This document shows, piece after piece, positions 8,381 to 26,241 of a stretch of 64,000 nt of DNA. Where the stretch lies: contig JBGGMV010000028.1 in assembly GCA_041287865.1 (NCBI GenBank), positions 100,964 to 164,963 of the forward strand, in the 5' to 3' direction. The stretch comes from Alphaproteobacteria bacterium (GTDB lineage: Bacteria > Pseudomonadota > Alphaproteobacteria > Micavibrionales > UBA2020). How positions within the stretch are numbered: position 1 is the first letter of the stretch; every line of letters begins with the position of its first letter. The notes below the pieces were generated by a model that saw only the letters and a list, made by a program, of their open reading frames with translations, made no database searches and had not been told where the DNA came from. Position numbers and translations under genes: made by a program.

Positions 8381-9930
8381 CGATCAAGGCCGCAGCGGCG
8401 AAAAAATACGGCGCGCCGCGTATCACCCGTTTCGCGATTGCCTTCTGCCTGCTGCTGGCGCTGCCCTACCTCGATATTTATTACGGCATCAGGACGCCTG
8501 TGTCGGCTTTCCCGATGGCGCTGGCCTGGGTCGTGCACGTGCTGGGCGCGGCCGCGCACGAGCTGGGGCATACGCTGCTCCGCTGGCTGTTTGGCTATCC
8601 GGCCTTTCCGGCGCTCGACATGGAATATGGCGGCGGCATCACCTATGCCACGCCGCGCCTGATGGCGTTTCAGGCGGGCGTCTATGCGGTGCTGGCGGGC
8701 GGGATCCTGATGGCGCGGCGGCAGGGGCGTAAAAAGGTTTTTTACGCGCTCTGCGTTTTTGCGCTGCTGCACCCCTTGCTGGCGCTGACGCGCGGGCACG
8801 AGGTGGCGATATTATACGCGGGCCACGCGGCGGAGCTGGCGACGGCGCTGGGCTTTGCCTGGTATTGCCTGTTCATGGGCCAGCGGCCTGAGACGCCCTA
8901 TCTGGCCACCGGCGATTTCGCGCTGCGCGTGATGGGCGCGGGCGCGGGGTTTTACCTTGCGCTGAAAAACCTGCTGCTGGGGCTGGAGCTGATGGTCAGC
9001 AGCCCCTTGCGCTTCACCTACAGCCGGCAAAAGGATTTGCAGGCGCAGGGTGATTTCGACTGGGTGGCGCGCATCACGGGGCTCGACATAGCCGATGCGG
9101 CGGGGCTGTTGTTTTTCGCCGCGCTGCTGGCGCTGGGCTTCGTGGTTTATGCGGGGTTGAAGGATCGCAAGGGCATGATGCCGTCGCGGCTTGCCCTCTG
9201 CCTCGTCACGGCGGCGGCGAGTTTGCTGGCTTACGGCTTCGAGCAGTTCAACCTTTACCTGCCCTTCTCGCTGAAGCTGCTGTTACTGCCCGTCGCCGAA
9301 GCCGGGCATTATATGGCGATTATCTTCCACGAACCGGGGCATGCCGCATCGCACTGGGTCTTCGGCATTCCGGCGATCCCGCTGCTCGATTCCGCTTTGG
9401 GCGGTGGCATGACCTATTCGATCGGGCGGAGTTATGCGGTGGTGGTTGGCATTTACGCGCTGTTTGCGGGCGCGGCCGTACTGGCGCTGTACAAGAAGCG
9501 GCGCGATATCGCCCTGCTGGTCGTGGCCATCGCCTTCCTCCACGCCGCGCTGCTCTGGGGAGAATGGGAGCCCGCGATCAGCTGCTTCATGGGCCACGGC
9601 ACGGAGGCGATGGTGGCGGGATACCTGCTGCGCCGCGCGCTGCTGGGCTGGCACAGGGCGGATAAAAAGGCCGACAGTTTCGTCAGCCTTGCGCTTGCGC
9701 TCCATCTGGCGGGGCGTGTGCTGATGCTGGGCGTGGCGCTGGGTTTTTCAAACGCGCGGCGCATGAGTTATTTCGTGCAGAAGGGTTTTCGCGGCGAGGG
9801 CGACCTTGATAAACTAGCGGCTTATCTGGGCGTCAGCACGCAAAGCGTTGCGTTGTTTTTAGCGGCCTTCGTTATCGCCTGTCTTGCGGCAGGGTATTGT
9901 TCAACCCGCAAGGCTCAGGCAGCGGCCTGA
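8377..9930 (+). CDS. Membrane protein with two tandem M50-like peptidase domains
   Basis: GTGA overlap with previous stop; AHELGH..GGGIT..GDFDWVA and FHEPGH..GGGMT..GDLDKLA. Confidence 0.7.
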   Translation: MTIKAAAAKKYGAPRITRFAIAFCLLLALPYLDIYYGIRTPVSAFPMALAWVVHVLGAAAHELGHTLLRWLFGYPAFPALDMEYGGGITYATPRLMAFQAGVYAVLAGGILMARRQGRKKVFYALCVFALLHPLLALTRGHEVAILYAGHAAELATALGFAWYCLFMGQRPETPYLATGDFALRVMGAGAGFYLALKNLLLGLELMVSSPLRFTYSRQKDLQAQGDFDWVARITGLDIADAAGLLFFAALLALGFVVYAGLKDRKGMMPSRLALCLVTAAASLLAYGFEQFNLYLPFSLKLLLLPVAEAGHYMAIIFHEPGHAASHWVFGIPAIPLLDSALGGGMTYSIGRSYAVVVGIYALFAGAAVLALYKKRRDIALLVVAIAFLHAALLWGEWEPAISCFMGHGTEAMVAGYLLRRALLGWHRADKKADSFVSLALALHLAGRVLMLGVALGFSNARRMSYFVQKGFRGEGDLDKLAAYLGVSTQSVALFLAAFVIACLAAGYCSTRKAQAAA

Positions 9931-9938
9931 GGTTTTTT
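9914..9938 (+). terminator. Hairpin/terminator inside the convergent overlap of two genes
   Basis: CTCAGGC-AGCG-GCCTGAG followed by GTTTTTT. Confidence 0.45.
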
Positions 9939-10757
9939 CAGCTTCAGCGGGCCGTCGACCGTGATTTCGTTCTGCAGCACGGTGGAATCATTGGCTTCGC
10001 GTTTCGCGAGTTCGGTGAATTCAGCGCTTAAGCGGTCGCGCAGGCCCTTGACCAGCGCGGCTTTGTCACGATCGGCCATGCTGTCGAAGGCCTTCAGCAG
10101 CTTGTCATTCATGTGCCATGATTCATCCATGTGCTGCTGGTTCATCATCTTCACATAGGTCGCGCGTTGTTCCTTCGGCAGGTCGTTGAAGGCCGCGAGC
10201 GCGCGGGCGAGACTGCCGGTCAGTTCTTCATCCTGCGCCTGCGTGGGCGGGAGCGCAGCGGAAACCTGGGCCTGCGCCTTGCCGTGCTTGAAATGGTCGA
10301 TTACTTTGCTGCAGCCTTTGATAAAGCCCGGGACGCCGCCGATGACAGACCCGACGGTGGCCGCCCCTGTCACAAGAATCGCCGCCACCGCGAAAGGTCC
10401 CGCCGCCACGCCGATACCGACAGATGCCGCGCAAACGCCGACGATGGCGGGAATGCTGAAGCCTGCGCCCGCAGCCATGATGCCACCCGCAATCGCCGCG
10501 CCGACGCCGCCCACCAGCATGCCCAGCAACGTTGTGACCCCGGTGAATTCGCCGCTGTCGAGCAGCTCGCTGTACACGCGCAGCATTTTCGGGCGTTCCG
10601 CTTCTTCGCCGCTGTAATAGTTGTCGTCAAAGGCGCGGGCAATCGCCTCGCCAAAGTCCCTGACGGGAGCGAAGGCGATAGCGGCGATGCCTTTTACTGT
10701 TTCGGTGAGAGGGGCTGCGAAGGGGTGGTCGATAATGGCCTTAATCTTCTTGAGCAT
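9915..10757 (-). CDS. Hypothetical hydrophobic-hairpin protein, family B, candidate effector
   Basis: Start MLKKIKAIIDHPFAAP matches paralogue MLEKAKEIINHPYAAP; long Gly/Ala TM region; tail VLQNEITVDGPLKLKKP. Confidence 0.8.
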   Translation of the reverse strand: MLKKIKAIIDHPFAAPLTETVKGIAAIAFAPVRDFGEAIARAFDDNYYSGEEAERPKMLRVYSELLDSGEFTGVTTLLGMLVGGVGAAIAGGIMAAGAGFSIPAIVGVCAASVGIGVAAGPFAVAAILVTGAATVGSVIGGVPGFIKGCSKVIDHFKHGKAQAQVSAALPPTQAQDEELTGSLARALAAFNDLPKEQRATYVKMMNQQHMDESWHMNDKLLKAFDSMADRDKAALVKGLRDRLSAEFTELAKREANDSTVLQNEITVDGPLKLKKPQAAA

Positions 10758-10788
10758 CTTTTTCCCTGGACTGTTTCTAGTTTCCATA

Positions 10789-10817
10789 AGCGTATGGCAG
10801 GAGAGGCGAAGAGTCAA
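10789..10817 (-). promoter_or_regulatory. Sigma70-like promoter
   Basis: TTGACT-N17-TACGCT upstream of ATG 10757. Confidence 0.5.
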
Positions 10818-10880
10818 ATGAGAGGGGCACATTAGTACCCCAAATTAACGTATTAAGATATTGATATTATTTGATTTAGG

Positions 10881-11735
10881 CTAGCCGAAGAGGGGGCGTT
10901 TTTTGGGCTTCAGCTTGATGGGGCCGCCGGTGGTAATCTCGTTCTGCAGCACGGTGGAATTATTGGCCACGCGCTGGGCCATTTTTTCGAATTCATCTTT
11001 CAGATGCAGTTTCAGCCCGTCCAGCAGCGCGTCGCGTTCGTTATCGGGCAGGCTGTTCAGCGCCTGCAACAGCTTCTCGGACTGGCCCGTCACGGCGTCC
11101 TGATGCTGCTGGTTCATCATCTTCACGTAGGCGTCGCGCTGTTCGGGCTTGAGATCGTTGAAGGGCGCGAGCGCCTTGGCCAGCGCCGCGGTGAGATCTG
11201 CGTTCTGCGCCTGCGCGGCAGGAAGCTGTTGCGCCACCTGCTGGCCTGCCTTGGTCAGCTTGCGATGTTCGATCGCCATCTGGCAGCCCTTCACAAGGCC
11301 CGGCACGCCGGCCAGGAACAATCCGGTGCAGGCCGCGCCCAGCGCAATGACCCCCGCCAGCACGAAGGGGCCGGCGGCGATGCCGAAACTCATGCCCGCG
11401 GCGCCCCATAAAAAGGCACCGAGCAGCCCCGAGCTGCCATAGGCCGCGATGCCTGCCGTCGCAGCGCCCGCAATCGCCCCGATCGCGTATCCGAACATGG
11501 TGATGAAACCCGCGCTGTCCTCATACTTGTTCAGCCGCTCGTACATGCGGCGCAGCTTGGGGCGGTTCTTGATCTCGTCGCCATCGTATTTATAGGTGTC
11601 GTCGTCGAAGGCTTCGCGAATGCGCTCGGTGAATTTTTTCAGCGGCTGCATGGCGAAGACGCCGATCGCCTTCAGCGTTTCGGTGACGGGCGCGGCGTAG
11701 GGGTGGTTGATAATTTCTTTTGCTTTCTCAAGCAT
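10881..11735 (-). CDS. Hypothetical hydrophobic-hairpin protein, family B, candidate effector
   Basis: Clear paralogue of both neighbours; AAGGGAG RBS; tail VLQNEITTGGPIKLKPKK. Confidence 0.8.
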   Translation of the reverse strand: MLEKAKEIINHPYAAPVTETLKAIGVFAMQPLKKFTERIREAFDDDTYKYDGDEIKNRPKLRRMYERLNKYEDSAGFITMFGYAIGAIAGAATAGIAAYGSSGLLGAFLWGAAGMSFGIAAGPFVLAGVIALGAACTGLFLAGVPGLVKGCQMAIEHRKLTKAGQQVAQQLPAAQAQNADLTAALAKALAPFNDLKPEQRDAYVKMMNQQHQDAVTGQSEKLLQALNSLPDNERDALLDGLKLHLKDEFEKMAQRVANNSTVLQNEITTGGPIKLKPKKRPLFG

Positions 11736-12597
11736 CGGGGGTTGCTCCCTTCAGCTTGATCTTGGCGGCGGTGACAGGGGCCTGTAAAACCACGCTGTCA
11801 TCGGCGTCTTTCTGCGCTACTTCGCTGAAATCTTCCTTCAGGCGATCACGTAAACTGCGCAGCAGCGCATCGCGGTCTTGTTCGGGCATGGCGTCGATCT
11901 GGGCCAATATCTTGTCGGCGGGCGCGGTTGCTGCCTGTGCATGCTTGTCGTTCATCATGCGCACGAAGGGGCCTTTATGTTCTTTCGGCAGGTTGTTGAA
12001 ATGCTGCATGACCGCGGCGAGGTTCTTGGTCAACTCCGCATCCTGCGCCTGCGACTTCGGGAGTGCGGCGGCGACGGCGCCCTGGGTTTTCAAATCTTTA
12101 TGGTGTTGAAGAATATTTTTGCAGCCCTTGATGAAACCGGGAACCATGCCGAGGCCAAGCCCCACCATCCCGCCAGCCGTCGCCGCAATCCCCGCCGCGA
12201 TATAAGGCCCCGTGGCGTAGCCGACGCCGCAGAGCGCCAGGCCCAGCACCGTCGCCATGACAGTCTTGCCCACCACGCCGCCCATCAGCACAATACCCGC
12301 CGCGACGCCTGCGCCGCCGAAGGCCAGCGCGCCCACAACCGCGCCGCCGATGACGATGAAGCCCATGCCGCTTTCGTATTTTTCGGCGAGGTCCATCAGG
12401 CGCGCCATCTTGCTCTTGGCTTTGCCTTCGGTGTCGTATTTGTAGTTGTTGTCGTCGGAGGCATGTGCGCAGCCCTTAATGAATTTGTTGATCGGCATGC
12501 GCGCATAATGGATAACGCCCTTCACCGCTTCTGTGAGCGGCGCGGCGTAGGGGTTGACCCAGAAATCTTTCAGCCCTGTTTTCAGCTTCTGAAACAT
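11728..12597 (-). CDS. Hypothetical hydrophobic-hairpin protein, family B, candidate effector
   Basis: Paralogue (NPYAAPLTEAVKG); tail VLQAPVTAAKIKLK; ATG 12597 preferred over 12603 because the promoter -10 occupies 12604-12609. Confidence 0.8.
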   Translation of the reverse strand: MFQKLKTGLKDFWVNPYAAPLTEAVKGVIHYARMPINKFIKGCAHASDDNNYKYDTEGKAKSKMARLMDLAEKYESGMGFIVIGGAVVGALAFGGAGVAAGIVLMGGVVGKTVMATVLGLALCGVGYATGPYIAAGIAATAGGMVGLGLGMVPGFIKGCKNILQHHKDLKTQGAVAAALPKSQAQDAELTKNLAAVMQHFNNLPKEHKGPFVRMMNDKHAQAATAPADKILAQIDAMPEQDRDALLRSLRDRLKEDFSEVAQKDADDSVVLQAPVTAAKIKLKGATPDA

Positions 12598-12603
12598 GCC
12601 CAT

Positions 12604-12632
12604 AGACTATATTATGGATAATCAAGAGTCAA
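12604..12632 (-). promoter_or_regulatory. Sigma70-like promoter, probably leaderless transcript
   Basis: TTGACT-N17-TAGTCT with ATG 7 nt downstream of the -10. Confidence 0.45.
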
Positions 12633-12694
12633 GCGAAAGCAAAAGGGGCCGCCCATCCGGACACCCCCTTAAGTAACTGTTATAACTTATCTAT

Positions 12695-14668
12695 TCAGGC
12701 CGCTTTTTTAAAAAGCTGCTTGTGGTTGGCGATGATGGTATCGACGACCGACGGATCGGCCAGGGTCGAGGTATCGCCCAGCTGGTCAAAGGCGTTCTCG
12801 GCCACCTTGCGCAAAATGCGGCGCATGATCTTGCCAGAGCGGGTTTTCGGCAGGCCCGGCGCGAAGAGCAGCACATCGGGCGTGGCGATCGGGCCGATCA
12901 CCTTGCGCACATGCGCGACGATATCCTTGCGCAGTTCATCGGTCGAATTCTCGCCGCCTTTCAAAATGACATAGGCATAGATGCCCTGCCCCTTGATGTC
13001 GTGCGGATAGCCGACAACCGCGCTCTCGGCGATTTTGGGGTGCGAGTTCAGCGCATCCTCGATCTCCGCCGTGCCGAGACGGTGGCCGGAGACGTTGATC
13101 ACATCGTCGACGCGGCCGGTGATGCGGTAGTAACCCTTTGCATCGCGTTTCGCGCCATCGCCGGTGAAATACATGCCTTTGTAGGTGCTGAAATAGGTCT
13201 GCACGAAACGGTCGTGGTCTTTGTAGACCGTGCGCATCTGTCCCGGCCAGCTGTCGAGCAGCACGAGGTTGCCTTCGTTCTCGCCCTCCAGAATCTTCCC
13301 GTTCGCATCGACCAGCGCCGGCTGCACGCCGAAGAAAGGCTTGGACGCAAAAGCCGGTTTCAGTTCATGCGCGCCCGGAAGCGCGGTGATCAGGATGCCG
13401 CCGGTTTCCGTCTGCCACCAGGTGTCAACAACGGGGCAGCGTTTTTCGCCGACCGTTTCCCAGTACCAGAGCCATGCCTCTTCGTTGATCGGTTCGCCCA
13501 CCGAACCAAGGATGCGGAGCGATTTGCGGCTGTGTTTCTTCACCCACTGGTCGCCCTCTTTGATGAGCGAGCGGATGGCGGTGGGCGCGGTGTAGAAGAT
13601 ATTCACCTTGTGCTTGTCGACCGTCTGCCAGAAGCGGCCCCAGTCGGGATAGTTCGGCACGCCTTCGAACATCACCGATGTCGCGCCATTCGCAAGAGGT
13701 CCGTACACAATATAGGTATGCCCCGTCACCCAGCCCACATCCGCCGTGCACCAGTAAACTTCGCCTTCGTTATAATCGAAGACATATTCATGCGTCATCG
13801 AGGCGAAAACAAGGTAACCGCCGGTGGTGTGCAGCACGCCCTTGGGCTTACCCGTCGAACCCGAAGTGTAGAGGATAAACAGCGGATCTTCCGCATTCAT
13901 CGGCTCGCAAGGGCAGTCGGTCGACTGCTTGGACGTGATTTCGTGATACCAGACGTCGCGTTTTTCATTCCACGCGACATTCCCGCCCGTGCGGCGATAG
14001 ACGATAACGGTATTGACGTTCGGGCAGTCCTTCAGTGCTTCTTCGACGTTCGCCTTCAGCGGCACTTTTTTCGAGCCGCGCAGGCCTTCGTCCGCCGTGA
14101 TGATGACGGTTGAATCACAATCTAGAATGCGGTCTTTCAGAGAGGTAGGCGAGAAACCGCCGAAGACGACCGAATGCACCGCGCCAATACGCGCGCAGGC
14201 CAGCATGGCATAGGCGGCTTCGGGGATCATGGGCATGTAGATGGTAACGCGGTCGCCCTTTTTCACGCCGCGTGCTTTCAGCGCGTTGGCGAGTTTGCAG
14301 ACTTCGTCTTTCAATTGTTGATAGGTGACGTTCGAACTGTCGTTCGCCTCGTCGCCTTCGCGGATCAGCGCGACCTGGCTGGCGCGTTTGGGCAGATGGC
14401 GGTCGATGCAGTTATAGGCGACGTTCAGCGTGCCATCGAAATACCAGCGGATGCGCGCGTTGTCGGCGTAATCGACGTCCTTCACCTGCGTATAGGGTTT
14501 GATCCAGTCAAGGCGCTTGCCCTGCTCGTCCCAGAATTTCACCGGGTCCTTCACCGACTGTTCGTACATCGCCGCGTATTTATCGGGCGTGATCTTGGCC
14601 GATTTTTTCAGGCTCTCGGGAATGGGCAGATACTCGGGATGCGGCGGATGCTGGGTACGTTCGGTCAT
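12695..14668 (-). CDS. acs: Acetyl-CoA synthetase
   Basis: [36 protein letters not shown] and [11 protein letters not shown] motifs; 657 aa. Confidence 0.98.
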
Positions 14669-19722: not shown

Positions 19723-20295
19723 ATGGTGGGGCTTTCTAATATATTCAAGATCGTGGGACAGGCCTGTACAAACTTCGTGCGCGAAGAGAAGGCAGCCATC
19801 GTGCGCGAGAAACAGACGAAAAGCCTGCTCGAGGCCATTATGGCCAGCGATAGTGACAAGGTCGAGGCCTTGCTGAAAGCGGGCGTCGATGCCGATGCGC
19901 CCAGCACCATGGGGAACACGCCCCTCACCTGCGCCATCAGCCTGAGGGCGACGCAAAGGACGCCTGAAAGCCTGAAGGTTCTCGAACTTGTTCTCGCGCG
20001 GGTGACTGATATTGACGGCATTACCAAGGATTCATCCTACCTGCTGATGGCGGCGCAAATCGGCGTGGCCGAAGCGGCGGCGGAACTGCTGCGGCGCGGC
20101 TGCGATATGACCGTGAAAGGCTGGGGAGGCCGCGACGCGCTCTGCTTTGCGACGGAAAACGGGCACAAGAGTGTCGCCGACCTGATCGTCGCCGCCGCGC
20201 AACAACGCAACGAGGCTTGCGCGGCGAACATGCATGCCGGCCTCGACAAGCCGATTGTCGCCCGCAAAAGGCTGCGCCTCAAAACCTTTTCTTAG
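19723..20295 (+). CDS. Ankyrin repeat protein, candidate effector
   Basis: GNTPLTCAI and GRDALCFATENGHKSVADL; AAGGGAG RBS; tail GLDKPIVARKRLRLK. Confidence 0.85.
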   Translation: MVGLSNIFKIVGQACTNFVREEKAAIVREKQTKSLLEAIMASDSDKVEALLKAGVDADAPSTMGNTPLTCAISLRATQRTPESLKVLELVLARVTDIDGITKDSSYLLMAAQIGVAEAAAELLRRGCDMTVKGWGGRDALCFATENGHKSVADLIVAAAQQRNEACAANMHAGLDKPIVARKRLRLKTFS

Positions 20296-23984: not shown

Positions 23985-24749
23985 TTACGGCCCCTTGAGC
24001 TTCAGCGGGCGCAAGATCCCGATGCTTTGCTGCAGTCCGTCGTTCATGCCCTGCATTGTGGCCTCGGTCAGCGCGACTTGCGCAACCGCAGCTTCATGCG
24101 CCGCGATGGCGGCTTTTTGCGTGGTGACTTCGGCAGCGTAAGCGGGGAAAAAGCTTTCGAGACGGGCCAGCACGTTCACCGCACCCGCAGCCTTGGCGAA
24201 ATCGAGCGTCGTCTTGCCAAGTGTGGTTGGCTTGACGGGATCCGCGCCGGCGGCGACGAGCGCGTCAAAGGCCTCGGCCGCGTCTTTTTCGGCCGCGAAC
24301 ATCAGGGCGGTTTTGCCGCGCTGGTCGGCCCAGTCGGGCTTCGCGCCGCCCTTGACGATCAGGTCGACGCATTCGGGCGCATTGCTGGCGGCGCTTTCCG
24401 ACAGCGCGCATTCTTCGGCCCAGGGGCCTTCCGGTTCGACTGTCACGTTGCAGTCGAGATAGGCCTGCACCACGTCCTTGTGGTTGTTGGCGGCGGCCAG
24501 CATCAGGGGCGTCTTGAAATCCTCGTCCAGCAGGCGGGCGTCGACGCGGTCTTCCAGCAGGTATTTCACCACAGCGGCATGGCCGTTCATGGCGGCAAGG
24601 TGCAGCGCCGTGCGGCGGTCGTTGTCGCGCGCGTCTTCGGGATCCGCGCCGCGGTTGCGGCAGGCCTCGACCTCGGCAAGGTCGCCCTTCGCCGCGGCGG
24701 CGAGGAATTTGGCGTAGAGTTCTGATTTGGTTTCGGAATGATAGGTCAT
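23985..24749 (-). CDS. Ankyrin repeat protein, candidate effector
   Basis: RRTALHLAAMNGH, KTPLMLAA, GKTALMFAA; tail GLQQSIGILRPLKLKGP. Confidence 0.92.
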   Translation of the reverse strand: MTYHSETKSELYAKFLAAAAKGDLAEVEACRNRGADPEDARDNDRRTALHLAAMNGHAAVVKYLLEDRVDARLLDEDFKTPLMLAAANNHKDVVQAYLDCNVTVEPEGPWAEECALSESAASNAPECVDLIVKGGAKPDWADQRGKTALMFAAEKDAAEAFDALVAAGADPVKPTTLGKTTLDFAKAAGAVNVLARLESFFPAYAAEVTTQKAAIAAHEAAVAQVALTEATMQGMNDGLQQSIGILRPLKLKGP

Positions 24750-26107
24750 GGCGCGTCACCACCGGGCGTGCGCATCTTCACCTTGATAACCTTGAGCGGC
24801 TTGATGGCGCGAAGGCTGCCGTGGTCCTGTACGCGCGCGTCAAGCTCGGGCAGGTAAGTCTCGAGGAACTGCGTTGACGGGCTGTACCTTTTTTGCATGC
24901 GGTCGCGCAACGTGCAGCCGGCGCTGTCTTTCAGCGCCGGATTGGCGCCGAGATCGAGCAGCTTTTTCATCAGGCTGCTCTGGTTCGGCGGCAGGTGCAT
25001 CAGCGCAGTGCGGCCTATGGTATCCTGATCGTCCAGCGCGTTATTTGCCTGCAGCACAAGATCGATCAGGCGCTCGTCGCCCGTGGCGCAGGCCAGCATC
25101 AGCGGTGTCTGCAGGCCGGCGGTGACGGTTTGCGCGGCATCGGCGCCATGATCCAGCAGCAGTTTAACGGCCCGGTAATTCTTTGCCTGCAGGGCGTTGC
25201 CGAGCGCGGTGTTGCGCGGCCCGTCATAGGCGTTAATGTCCGGTTTTTGTTCGAGCAGGAATTCGAGAACATCGGCTTTAACACGCGACGCCGCGAGCTG
25301 CAGCGCCCGGCGCCCTTTGCCGTCGGGCTCGTTCAAATCCGCGCCCGCCTCCAGCGCCTGCCGTATTGCCTCCAGCTGCCCGTCCTCGCAGGCATTGGTG
25401 AGTGCGGTCTGGACGTTCTCTGCGCTGTCGAGCGCGCGCAGGACTTTGCGCGCCTTGCCGCGTTTTGCGAAATCTTCCATCTTGCTGCCGGTTTTCGACT
25501 TCAGCTCGAGATTGGCACCGGCTTTCAGCAGCAGCTCGAGGCATTCGATATGCTCGCCGCCGGCGGCGCGCATCACTGCCGTCACGCCGTTGCAATCCTG
25601 TGCGTCAAGGTTGACGCGGCGCGTGATCAGGCGCTGCACCAGTTTTTCGCAGCCCATGTGCGCTGCGGTGATAAGCGGCGTTTCATTGATGCGCGGTATA
25701 AGATGCTCGGGGTTCGCGCCGGAAGAGAGCAACATGCCGCCAATCACTTCGTGGCGCCGCTCCGCCGCGATGTTAAGCGGCGCATAGCCGCGGCGGTCTT
25801 CGGCATTTACATCGGCCTGGCTCAGTATCAGGTGGCGGACGACCTGTACCTCGCCCGAGCGCACGGCAAGGTGCAGGGCTGAATCGCCGTTTGGCGCGGC
25901 TGAATTCACGGGCGCGCCGCCTTCCAGCGCGCGTTTCACCTTGGCAAGATCGCCTTCCCGGGCGCCCTTCAGCAGAAGTTCGGCAGGCTGAAGCTCGTCC
26001 GCCTCGGCGCGCAGTTCCTTCAGCGCATCGTCGAGGCGGGCGAGATTATCCTCGTCCTCGTCGCCAAAAGTGATATTGATGCCGGCAACACCGGTCACTG
26101 TCGTCAT
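24746..26107 (-). CDS. Ankyrin repeat protein (about 10 repeats), candidate effector
   Basis: Multiple GxTxLxxA repeats; tail SLRAIKPLKVIKVK. Confidence 0.92.
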   Translation of the reverse strand: MTTVTGVAGINITFGDEDEDNLARLDDALKELRAEADELQPAELLLKGAREGDLAKVKRALEGGAPVNSAAPNGDSALHLAVRSGEVQVVRHLILSQADVNAEDRRGYAPLNIAAERRHEVIGGMLLSSGANPEHLIPRINETPLITAAHMGCEKLVQRLITRRVNLDAQDCNGVTAVMRAAGGEHIECLELLLKAGANLELKSKTGSKMEDFAKRGKARKVLRALDSAENVQTALTNACEDGQLEAIRQALEAGADLNEPDGKGRRALQLAASRVKADVLEFLLEQKPDINAYDGPRNTALGNALQAKNYRAVKLLLDHGADAAQTVTAGLQTPLMLACATGDERLIDLVLQANNALDDQDTIGRTALMHLPPNQSSLMKKLLDLGANPALKDSAGCTLRDRMQKRYSPSTQFLETYLPELDARVQDHGSLRAIKPLKVIKVKMRTPGGDAP

Positions 26108-26175: not shown

Positions 26176-26241
26176 TTATGTCAAATATTTGCCCGATTAA
26201 ACCCTTGTTTTTCATGAGGTTAACAGGCTATACCCCTAGCC

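Follow-up and report, generated by a model that had tools for sequence, protein, structure and literature searches.

Family B, three tandem genes on a 64,000-nucleotide stretch of DNA from a Micavibrio-like bacterium (hereafter the window), was found to encode small proteins with a conserved hydrophobic hairpin, a conserved pre-tail helix and a basic C-terminal tail. On sequence evidence, the family appears to form, together with family A of the same window and further open reading frames (ORFs), a lineage-restricted superfamily of small helical membrane proteins with 11 ORFs in the genome. By analogy with Legionella, the family B proteins may be membrane-inserting effectors translocated by a type IVB (Dot/Icm) secretion system, a reading to which we give a probability of roughly one half. 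The window (G000:C28:100964-164963) belongs to a metagenome-assembled genome, G000, of 3.6 Mb in 136 contigs with an estimated completeness of 96.6%, and the closest public relative of this genome is labelled 'uncultured Micavibrio sp.'.

The genes of family B are three head-to-tail ORFs on the minus strand (9915-10832, 10881-11735 and 11728-12603), for which the following gene models were obtained.

9915..10757, minus strand: B1, in an ORF open to 10832 (305 amino acids); own orthologues P0009 and P0012, tree support 100/100
10881..11735, minus strand: B2, 284 amino acids (P0002); orthologues P0004-P0008 in the tree
11728..12603, minus strand: B3, 291 amino acids; homologues favour the second ATG at 12597 (289 amino acids); tree support 100/100

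The pairwise identity of B1-B3 was 41-47%, and in a six-frame search of G000 they matched one another with E-values of 8e-75 and 7e-56. Two more copies emerged from the same search: the fourth, on contig C126, was 35% identical, and the fifth, on C106, matched weakly. For B1, the start at 10757 was preferred because the 25 extra N-terminal residues of the longer ORF were absent from all paralogues and orthologues. B2, which was used as the reference for residue numbering, has GGGAG about 9 nucleotides ahead of its ATG, and it shares its first 8 nucleotides with the end of B3. The orthologue of B3 in the relative L002 (7132-7998) was 54% identical to it.

Every motif that the original prediction had listed for three tandem paralogues was recovered in B1, B2 and B3. 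The three proteins share the N-terminal motif [HN]P[FY]AAP[LV]TE near residue 12, an F/S-DD-x2-Y motif, a hydrophobic stretch of about 75 residues ending in VPG[FL][IV]KGC, the segment FN.L..E.[RK]..[YF]V[KR]MMN..H and, finally, [DE][RK].AL[LV]..L[RK].[RH]L..[ED]F...A followed by a ..[IL]KLK tail. The two short helical repeats that had also been described were borne out in part: the FN.L motif occurs once per protein, but two distinct helix-Pro-helix units are present. The similarity between the FN.L..EQR..YVKMMN unit and the pre-tail unit was weak (hhalign E 3.4e-4, reversed control 0.24), which indicates that the repeats seen earlier were these two different units and suggests an internal duplication of the helix-Pro-helix unit within family B. 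In B2, the parts are arranged as follows.

11676..11708, minus strand: NHPYAAPVTET motif (residues 10-20), with P12 invariant
11280..11513, minus strand: Gly/Ala-rich hydrophobic region (residues 75-152), with conserved Gly and Pro; helices predicted by AlphaFold2 (AF2) at low confidence
11094..11201, minus strand: first helix-Pro-helix unit (residues 179-214), FNDL..EQR..YVKMMNQQH
10962..11093, minus strand: pre-tail helix common to family A (residues 215-258), LP..ER..L...L...L..EF...A
10911..10961, minus strand: basic C-terminal tail STVLQNEITTGGPIKLK (residues 259-275), predicted by AF2 to be disordered

The best-conserved elements of the 31 full-length members were the N-terminal motif, the Gly and Pro residues of the hairpin, and one face of the pre-tail helix formed by L241, L245, F249 and A253. 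Across 26-31 full-length relatives P12 was invariant, A15 and P16 were conserved to at least 87%, and Y13 to 76%. The hydrophobic region of B2 consists of 47% Gly plus Ala and contains 21 small-xxx-small motifs, and its conserved positions are G82, G103, G118, P123, G138, P145, G146 and G150. Within the pre-tail helix, L241 and F249 were invariant, while L245 and A253 were at least 80% conserved.

The hydrophobicity of the family B hairpin was moderate. The best 19-residue windows of the B copies gave insertion energies of -0.9 to +1.2 kcal/mol and the second segment gave +1.3 to +2.7, values that are indicative only, as they were estimated on the Hessa scale without weighting by position. The hydrophobic segments of B1-B3 would be sufficient for membrane insertion. 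Furthermore, a direct reading of B2 showed a net positive charge on both flanks of the hydrophobic region and an uncharged linker of about 6-8 residues, which favours an N-in/C-in topology with both ends predicted to be cytoplasmic. The AF2 model of B2, built from an alignment of 11 sequences, was all-helical, with helices at residues 75-96 and 104-170 and a disordered tail, but its confidence was low (mean predicted local distance difference test score 52.9, predicted template modelling score 0.24).

Family A consists of four paralogues in the same window, with a mutual identity of 18-25%.

1614..2450, minus strand: A1, family A paralogue
2447..3238, minus strand: A2, family A paralogue; start placed at 3217 in the original prediction
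3416..4195, minus strand: A3, family A paralogue; helix module kept
4192..5004, minus strand: A4, family A paralogue; start at the ATG at 4974 in the database homologue

It had been proposed that the final helical module of family B aligns with the ER..L..FP.EF module of family A. When profiles of 11 B sequences and 8 A sequences were compared with hhalign, the last 70 residues gave an E-value of 1e-8 (probability 95.7%, reversed control 0.78), and the helix without the tail gave 4.9e-6 (86.2%, reversed control 0.49). The proposed alignment was thus confirmed, with a significant A-to-B similarity beyond the common tail; the tail alone gave an E-value of 2.8e-4 (41.2%, reversed control 0.28). 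In addition, the N-terminal and hydrophobic part gave 2.4e-7 (93.5%, reversed control 0.046), which composition may inflate, and the full-length comparison gave 2.4e-13 over 208 columns (98%, reversed control not run). Since the similarity between the two families was significant, the claim of one superfamily stands, and the homology reaches beyond the C-terminal module, which is stronger than what had been claimed. However, the seven genes that had been assigned to this superfamily were too few, as it comprises 11 ORFs. Family A has one helix-Pro-helix unit, whereas family B has two. Genes of both families lie on common contigs in relatives, including L002. The A3 orthologue of the latter (13168-13932) ends in VIRVGDMKGLKI.

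The basic tail was not restricted to families A and B. Among all G000 ORFs of at least 100 residues, 91 carried P-[LIVMF]-[KR]-[LIVMF]-[KR] in the last 22 residues, compared with 13 at an internal control position. When the tails were aligned on the Pro, a position-specific pattern extended about 10-12 residues upstream, with preferences for G/V at -10, L/T at -9, I/V at -5, T at -4, V at -3 and K at -1. The consensus was h-x-V-x-x-P-[LI]-[KR]-[LF]-K followed by K/P-rich residues, and it was basic. The general tag measures about 15 residues, and the sequence ahead of it is family-specific. The tail was present on about 80-90 otherwise unrelated G000 proteins, including soluble ankyrin-repeat proteins. 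Such ankyrin-repeat carriers occur in the window at 19723-20295 (plus strand), 24746-26107 (minus), 49893-50786 (plus) and 53346-54308 (plus), and their tails are RLRLK, PLKVIKVK, RPLVLK and KFRLK, respectively.

The form of the tail varied between relatives. The strict hexapeptide K-P-[ILMF]-K-[LF]-K, searched as a DNA pattern, was found 19 times in G000 (control 3) and 20 times in the nearest relative, G093 (control 3), and at most 6 times in each of the other genomes of a sample of 151 from the order, with 0-6 in the same genus. Family B orthologues in another genus had related but different tails, for instance KPI..LKRR. Moreover, a well-supported clade nested beside B1 and B2 (P0010, P0011 and P0014-P0016, from Logan contigs) ended in I[IV]APRTA[SR]FS[RH]R instead of P-[IL]-K-L-K, and a replacement of the tail within family B is apparent from these sequences.

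The reach of the pre-tail helix was much narrower than that of the tail. A helix-only hidden Markov model, iterated over all 17,886 G000 ORFs of at least 60 residues, converged on 11 ORFs, namely B1-B3, the C126 and C106 copies, A1-A4 and two short proteins (C70:782-1354 and C130:5316-5840) with the hairpin at the very N-terminus. All 11 had Gly/Ala-rich hydrophobic hairpins. About 20 further tail-bearing ORFs of G000 had hydrophobic hairpins without the helix, and none of the soluble tail-bearing proteins of this genome was significant with the helix-only model. Hence, the helix is a trait of the superfamily rather than a general requirement of membrane cargo, and it is most simply read as a domain that the members of one superfamily inherited from a common ancestor. 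Two tandem ankyrin-like tail-bearing paralogues on C8 (63646-65236, minus strand) have a pre-tail segment LP.E.RDKVL.KL...F (PPEKRDKVLGKLCDEF) that looks helix-like by eye. The pair reached an E-value of 3.6e-5 only with a model of helix plus tail and was not counted as a helix carrier.

The original prediction had suggested that the pre-tail helix might bind a chaperone. The helix would then be a docking site for an adaptor or chaperone and would form a bipartite signal with the tail, like that of IcmSW-dependent effectors or of Bep proteins with a BID domain and a tail. In all members it is found directly ahead of the tail. It has a single hydrophobic face that is invariant (L241, L245, F249 and A253), is the best conserved soluble segment common to A and B, coincides with a hairpin in every carrier, and was retained in A3 despite the loss of the tail. 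However, about 20 other tail-bearing hairpin ORFs do without it. Since the 11 carriers either are homologous throughout or have the hairpin architecture in common, descent from a common ancestor explains the co-occurrence of helix and hairpin. Furthermore, no IcmS-family protein was detected in G000, and the conserved face could equally pack on the first helix-Pro-helix unit within the protein. A docking role, which would be specific to this class of cargo, was regarded as doubtful.

A type IVB machine was encoded in G000, partly in the window itself. The components at the end of the window were as follows.

54539..57619, minus strand: IcmB/DotO (TraU)-type ATPase; plasmid matches and a weak TraC match
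57878..58627, minus strand: IcmJ/DotN homologue (NF038221, E 3e-26, 92 bits, just under the 100-bit cut-off)
60446..62002, minus strand: possible IcmG/DotF-like protein; weak match (E 2.6e-5), far under the cut-off
62105..63481, minus strand: DotG/IcmE (TraO, VirB10-like) homologue (E 1.5e-38, C-terminal 200 residues)
63478..64000, minus strand: DotH/IcmK, C-terminal part; the gene continues past the edge of the window

Two DotI/IcmL genes lie just past the window, within the next 3 kb of contig C28. The order of the cluster (54539-64000, minus strand, and the next 3 kb) was two IcmL genes, IcmK, IcmE, the IcmG-like gene, a TraQ-like gene, a 127-residue ORF, IcmJ and IcmB, which matches the gene order of Legionella icm region II. 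The IcmB/DotO ATPase was 38-44% identical over 94% of its length to matches on 3,784 plasmids, mostly conjugative and including a Piscirickettsia plasmid. DotM and DotL were located on a separate contig (C66:117413-121790). The DotL homologue (C66:119214-121790) matched Legionella IcmO (6sz9_A) over residues 3-606 with an E-value of 8.4e-142, whereas its C-terminal region (about residues 607-858) did not align with Legionella DotL. The DotM directly upstream matched DotM of the PDB with 9.4e-19 and NF033890 with 1.8e-48. In Legionella, acidic signals are bound by a basic patch of DotM; at three arginines taken to belong to this patch, the G000 protein has Asp once and Arg/Lys twice, which gives no clear sign of an inverted patch. 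A DotL homologue (E below 1e-70, most below 1e-200) was present in 149 of the 151 genomes and in all eight families of the order, which argues that the system is chromosomal and ancestral. The VirD4 (PF02534) and VirB4 (PF03135) models found nothing in G000, and the type IVB homologues needed their own models. The sole FHIPEP protein, considered as a type III marker, was the flagellar FlhA (892 bits, cut-off 772).

In the literature, no paper was found that connects Micavibrio-like bacteria with a type IVB system. No type III or IV system was reported in the 2011 genome paper of M. aeruginosavorus ARL-13 (PMC3189940), and the reviews consulted treat type IVB effector systems as belonging to Legionellales and a small number of related Gammaproteobacteria (PMC11338181).

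The tail and the machine bear on whether the proteins leave the cell by another route, for example by type I secretion or in vesicles, or whether the tail is a nuclear or membrane-targeting motif acting in a eukaryotic host. Type I substrates also have uncleaved C-terminal signals, and ankyrin proteins of Orientia have been reported as type I substrates (PMC4315096). In addition, the tail is rich in Lys and Arg like many eukaryotic targeting motifs, and the strict motif is found only in very close relatives, whereas DotL is order-wide. However, hydrophobic hairpin proteins are not typical type I cargo. On about 90 proteins the tail stands no more than about 20 residues from the C-terminus, with variable end spacing, and this strict placement suits an export tag better than a host-acting motif, and the only injection-type machine found was type IVB (type I and type VI components were not searched). 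Both possibilities were thus considered very unlikely.

Translocation by the type IVB system would be in agreement with what has been described for Legionella. About one third of type IV effectors have transmembrane domains (PMC12981334). Legionella transmembrane effectors insert into the inner membrane of the producer before being extracted and secreted. A short periplasmic loop and a C-terminal signal exposed to the cytoplasm are required for this, as are IcmS/IcmW (PMC11602083). Like Dot/Icm transmembrane effectors such as SidF, the A/B proteins are small and helical, with one hydrophobic hairpin, a short loop and an unstructured C-terminal candidate signal that would have to face the cytoplasm. 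Like the producers of such effectors, G000 encodes DotL, DotM, DotN, DotO, DotG, DotH and DotI, and it resembles them in its many paralogous, lineage-specific, unannotated families. Unlike Dot/Icm effectors, the A/B proteins have no sequence relation to any Legionella effector; sub-threshold matches to SidF were obtained for two members, with a best E-value of 0.013. Moreover, the organism is Micavibrio-like and does not belong to Legionellales.

What is established is that the genes exist and are homologous and conserved, that the tail occurs genome-wide and that the machine is encoded; the later steps can be proposed by analogy with Legionella. Each protein consists of five parts: the N-terminal NPYAAPLTE motif with its helices, a glycine-zipper-like hairpin, one (family A) or two (family B) helix-Pro-helix units, an amphipathic helix and a disordered basic tail. 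The tail, exposed to the cytoplasm, would be read by the DotL-DotM-DotN coupling complex, and the type IVB channel would then convey the protein, which might first reside briefly in the inner membrane of its own cell. The hairpin might then insert into the membrane of a target cell, either a prey bacterium or a eukaryote. The invariant glycines could let the hairpin pack tightly or oligomerise, so that it might serve as an anchor for the helical domains or form a leak or channel. A more specific version, in which an ancestral Dot/Icm-type machine reads the basic tag, the A/B proteins are glycine-zipper cargo that breaches membranes and the pre-tail helix is a class-specific second docking element, is speculative and seems improbable.

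The distribution of family B was narrow. Nine matches were found in a clustered database of 5.8 billion proteins, and a profile search of 1.84 billion representative proteins gave 60 matches, of which about 30 were full length; only one further protein was added when the clustered database was searched with a profile. In the sample of the order, family B was present in 18 of 41 genomes of the window's own family, in three genera, and in none of 109 genomes from seven other families. In six relatives a family B gene stands beside acs (acetyl-CoA synthetase) and near gpsA and tsaD. The number of copies at this locus was mostly one, with two in two relatives and three in G000. In the maximum-likelihood tree, B1, B2, B3 and the C126 copy each grouped with their own orthologues (100/100 or 100/99), which indicates old, retained paralogues and not a recent amplification. 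Family B is conserved, and its inheritance is vertical.

Several observations weigh against translocation by the type IVB system. Single-copy, syntenic and vertical inheritance also fits a resident membrane protein. A3 has no KPLKLK-type tail in any reading frame, and one clade of family B carries the other tail described above. Enrichment of the strict hexapeptide was confined to G000 and its nearest relative, whereas DotL is order-wide, so either the form of the tag changes fast or variants are used elsewhere. The tail is a basic motif, P-[LI]-K-[LF]-K, whereas the Legionella signal is Glu-rich (E-block) or polar. In the 96.6% complete G000, there was no match to the IcmS model (Pfam PF12608) at E-values up to 0.1; IcmW and LvgA were not searched. 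In addition, the predicted structure was poor, and the hydrophobic stretch, at about 75 residues, is long enough for either two or three membrane segments, so that the topology given above is tentative.

The family B proteins might accordingly be resident in the inner membrane and never exported. Their tail would then bind acidic lipids, direct polar localisation or act as a degradation or quality-control tag, and the helix would be an ordinary cytoplasmic domain. The single copy at a fixed chromosomal place beside acs, gpsA and tsaD across three genera and the old paralogues under conservation suit such a role, as do hydrophobic segments that suffice for membrane insertion and the retention of genes with no tail (A3) or another tail. 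On the other hand, the same tail is found on about 80-90 unrelated proteins, soluble ankyrin-repeat ones among them, which makes a membrane-specific role of the tail hard to explain, and G000 encodes a full type IVB machine, with some of its genes in this window. Furthermore, Legionella transmembrane effectors reside first in the inner membrane of the producer (PMC11602083), so residence is no bar to export. A purely resident function was judged to be unlikely, and type IVB translocation was kept as the best explanation.

By sequence, the A/B proteins belong to none of the known families with which they were compared. In scans of B1-B3 and of 54 A/B members against Pfam-A and NCBIfam, no family reached its cut-off. 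The sub-threshold matches were helical-repeat noise (MgtE_N in 8 of 54 members with a best E-value of 0.027, DUF3106 in 4, HAAS in 2, and Enkurin), and the helix was not assigned to any of these families. In PDB profile searches, Hbl L1 and uteroglobin matched with E-values of about 0.004 each, the former driven by composition and the latter at motif level, and composition-driven matches to influenza HA2 fusion-peptide chains gave E-values of 0.05-1. Membership of the ClyA/Hbl/Nhe toxins was rejected: NCBIfam HblD scored 14.5 bits against a cut-off of 650 (E 0.013), and the match to 7nmq_A (Hbl L1, E 0.0046) was confined to the Gly/Ala region and hydrophobic head. Like ClyA/Hbl/Nhe and glycine-zipper toxins, the A/B proteins have a Gly/Ala-rich hydrophobic hairpin within a long helical protein. 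Unlike ClyA/Hbl toxins, they lack a Sec signal and the length of a ClyA-type helical bundle, and the likeness is an analogy of design only.

Chlamydial Inc proteins are alike in their bilobed hydrophobic domain of about 50-75 residues with helical flanks facing the cytosol, and in being fast-evolving tandem paralogues without database annotation. However, they are type III substrates with N-terminal signals, whereas the candidate signal of family B is C-terminal and the only FHIPEP protein is flagellar. They also show no sequence similarity to family B, whose hairpin is strongly conserved with invariant Gly and Pro. Among type IVA signals, the Bartonella Beps have a BID domain and a positively charged tail, and the C-termini of Agrobacterium VirF, VirE2 and VirE3 are Arg-rich. 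These signals are also short, positive, unstructured and read by a coupling protein, and in the Beps a helical module stands directly ahead of the tail. The Beps differ in that they use a type IVA (VirB/VirD4) system and in that BID has about 100-140 residues and is found on most of them. The helix of the A/B proteins has about 35-45 residues and is found on 11 of about 90 tail-bearing ORFs.

The surroundings of family B were also inspected, and the following elements were read by eye or found by sequence matching.

12606..12632, minus strand: promoter-like TTGACT-15 nucleotides-TATAGT, abutting the start of B3; atypical spacing, read by eye
12641..12670, minus strand: G+C hairpin with a T-run, 3' of the acs stop codon; read by eye
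5046..5054, minus strand: TTGACATAA box, upstream of the family A operon

A consensus promoter scan of 9700-12900 found none. The hairpin at 12641..12670 is probably the acs terminator, and with this hairpin on the acs side and the promoter-like element at B3, the genes B1-B3 look like a single operon apart from acs. Since the B3 ATG lies within 2 nucleotides of the promoter-like element, the mRNA may be leaderless. The TTGACATAA box had three exact copies in the window (0.17 expected), at 5046-5054 (minus strand), 26176-26184 (minus) and 51111-51119 (plus), each just upstream of a tail-bearing gene or operon, namely the family A operon, the ankyrin gene 24746-26107 and the gene 51185-53338. 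No such box was found ahead of family B within the window.

The ORF at 8344-9930 (plus strand) encodes a 528-residue protein of no assigned family with a hydrophobic C-terminus, and it converges on B1 with an overlap of 16 nucleotides at the ends. Its adjacency to B1 was kept in all relatives examined, and so was the entire neighbourhood. Between families A and B, a pentapeptide-repeat protein is encoded at 6333-7589 (plus strand; Pfam E 5e-29), and this gene has no counterpart in the otherwise syntenic stretch of L002.

The type IVB secretion signal is notoriously diffuse, and what is new here is a family of candidate transmembrane type IVB cargo that lacks annotation and carries a basic signal of an unusual, motif-like kind. 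Interest centres mainly on the overall system. The lineage combines a chromosomal Dot/Icm-like system, a short recognisable C-terminal tag and a large proportion of small membrane-hairpin cargo candidates. The A/B superfamily offers a compact test object of about 280 residues with a separable N-terminal motif, hairpin, helix and tail. It could inform how hydrophobic proteins are handed over to a type IV coupling complex, what role a tail-adjacent helix plays in recognition, and what effects an injected glycine-zipper hairpin has on a target membrane. The Micavibrio-like lineage is known for epibiotic predation on bacteria. If the proteins are not exported, they still represent a conserved family of membrane proteins, without annotation, in a predatory lineage about which little is known. 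On the improbable version outlined above, with prey bacteria as the target, the type IVB system would serve to kill bacteria through injected membrane toxins.

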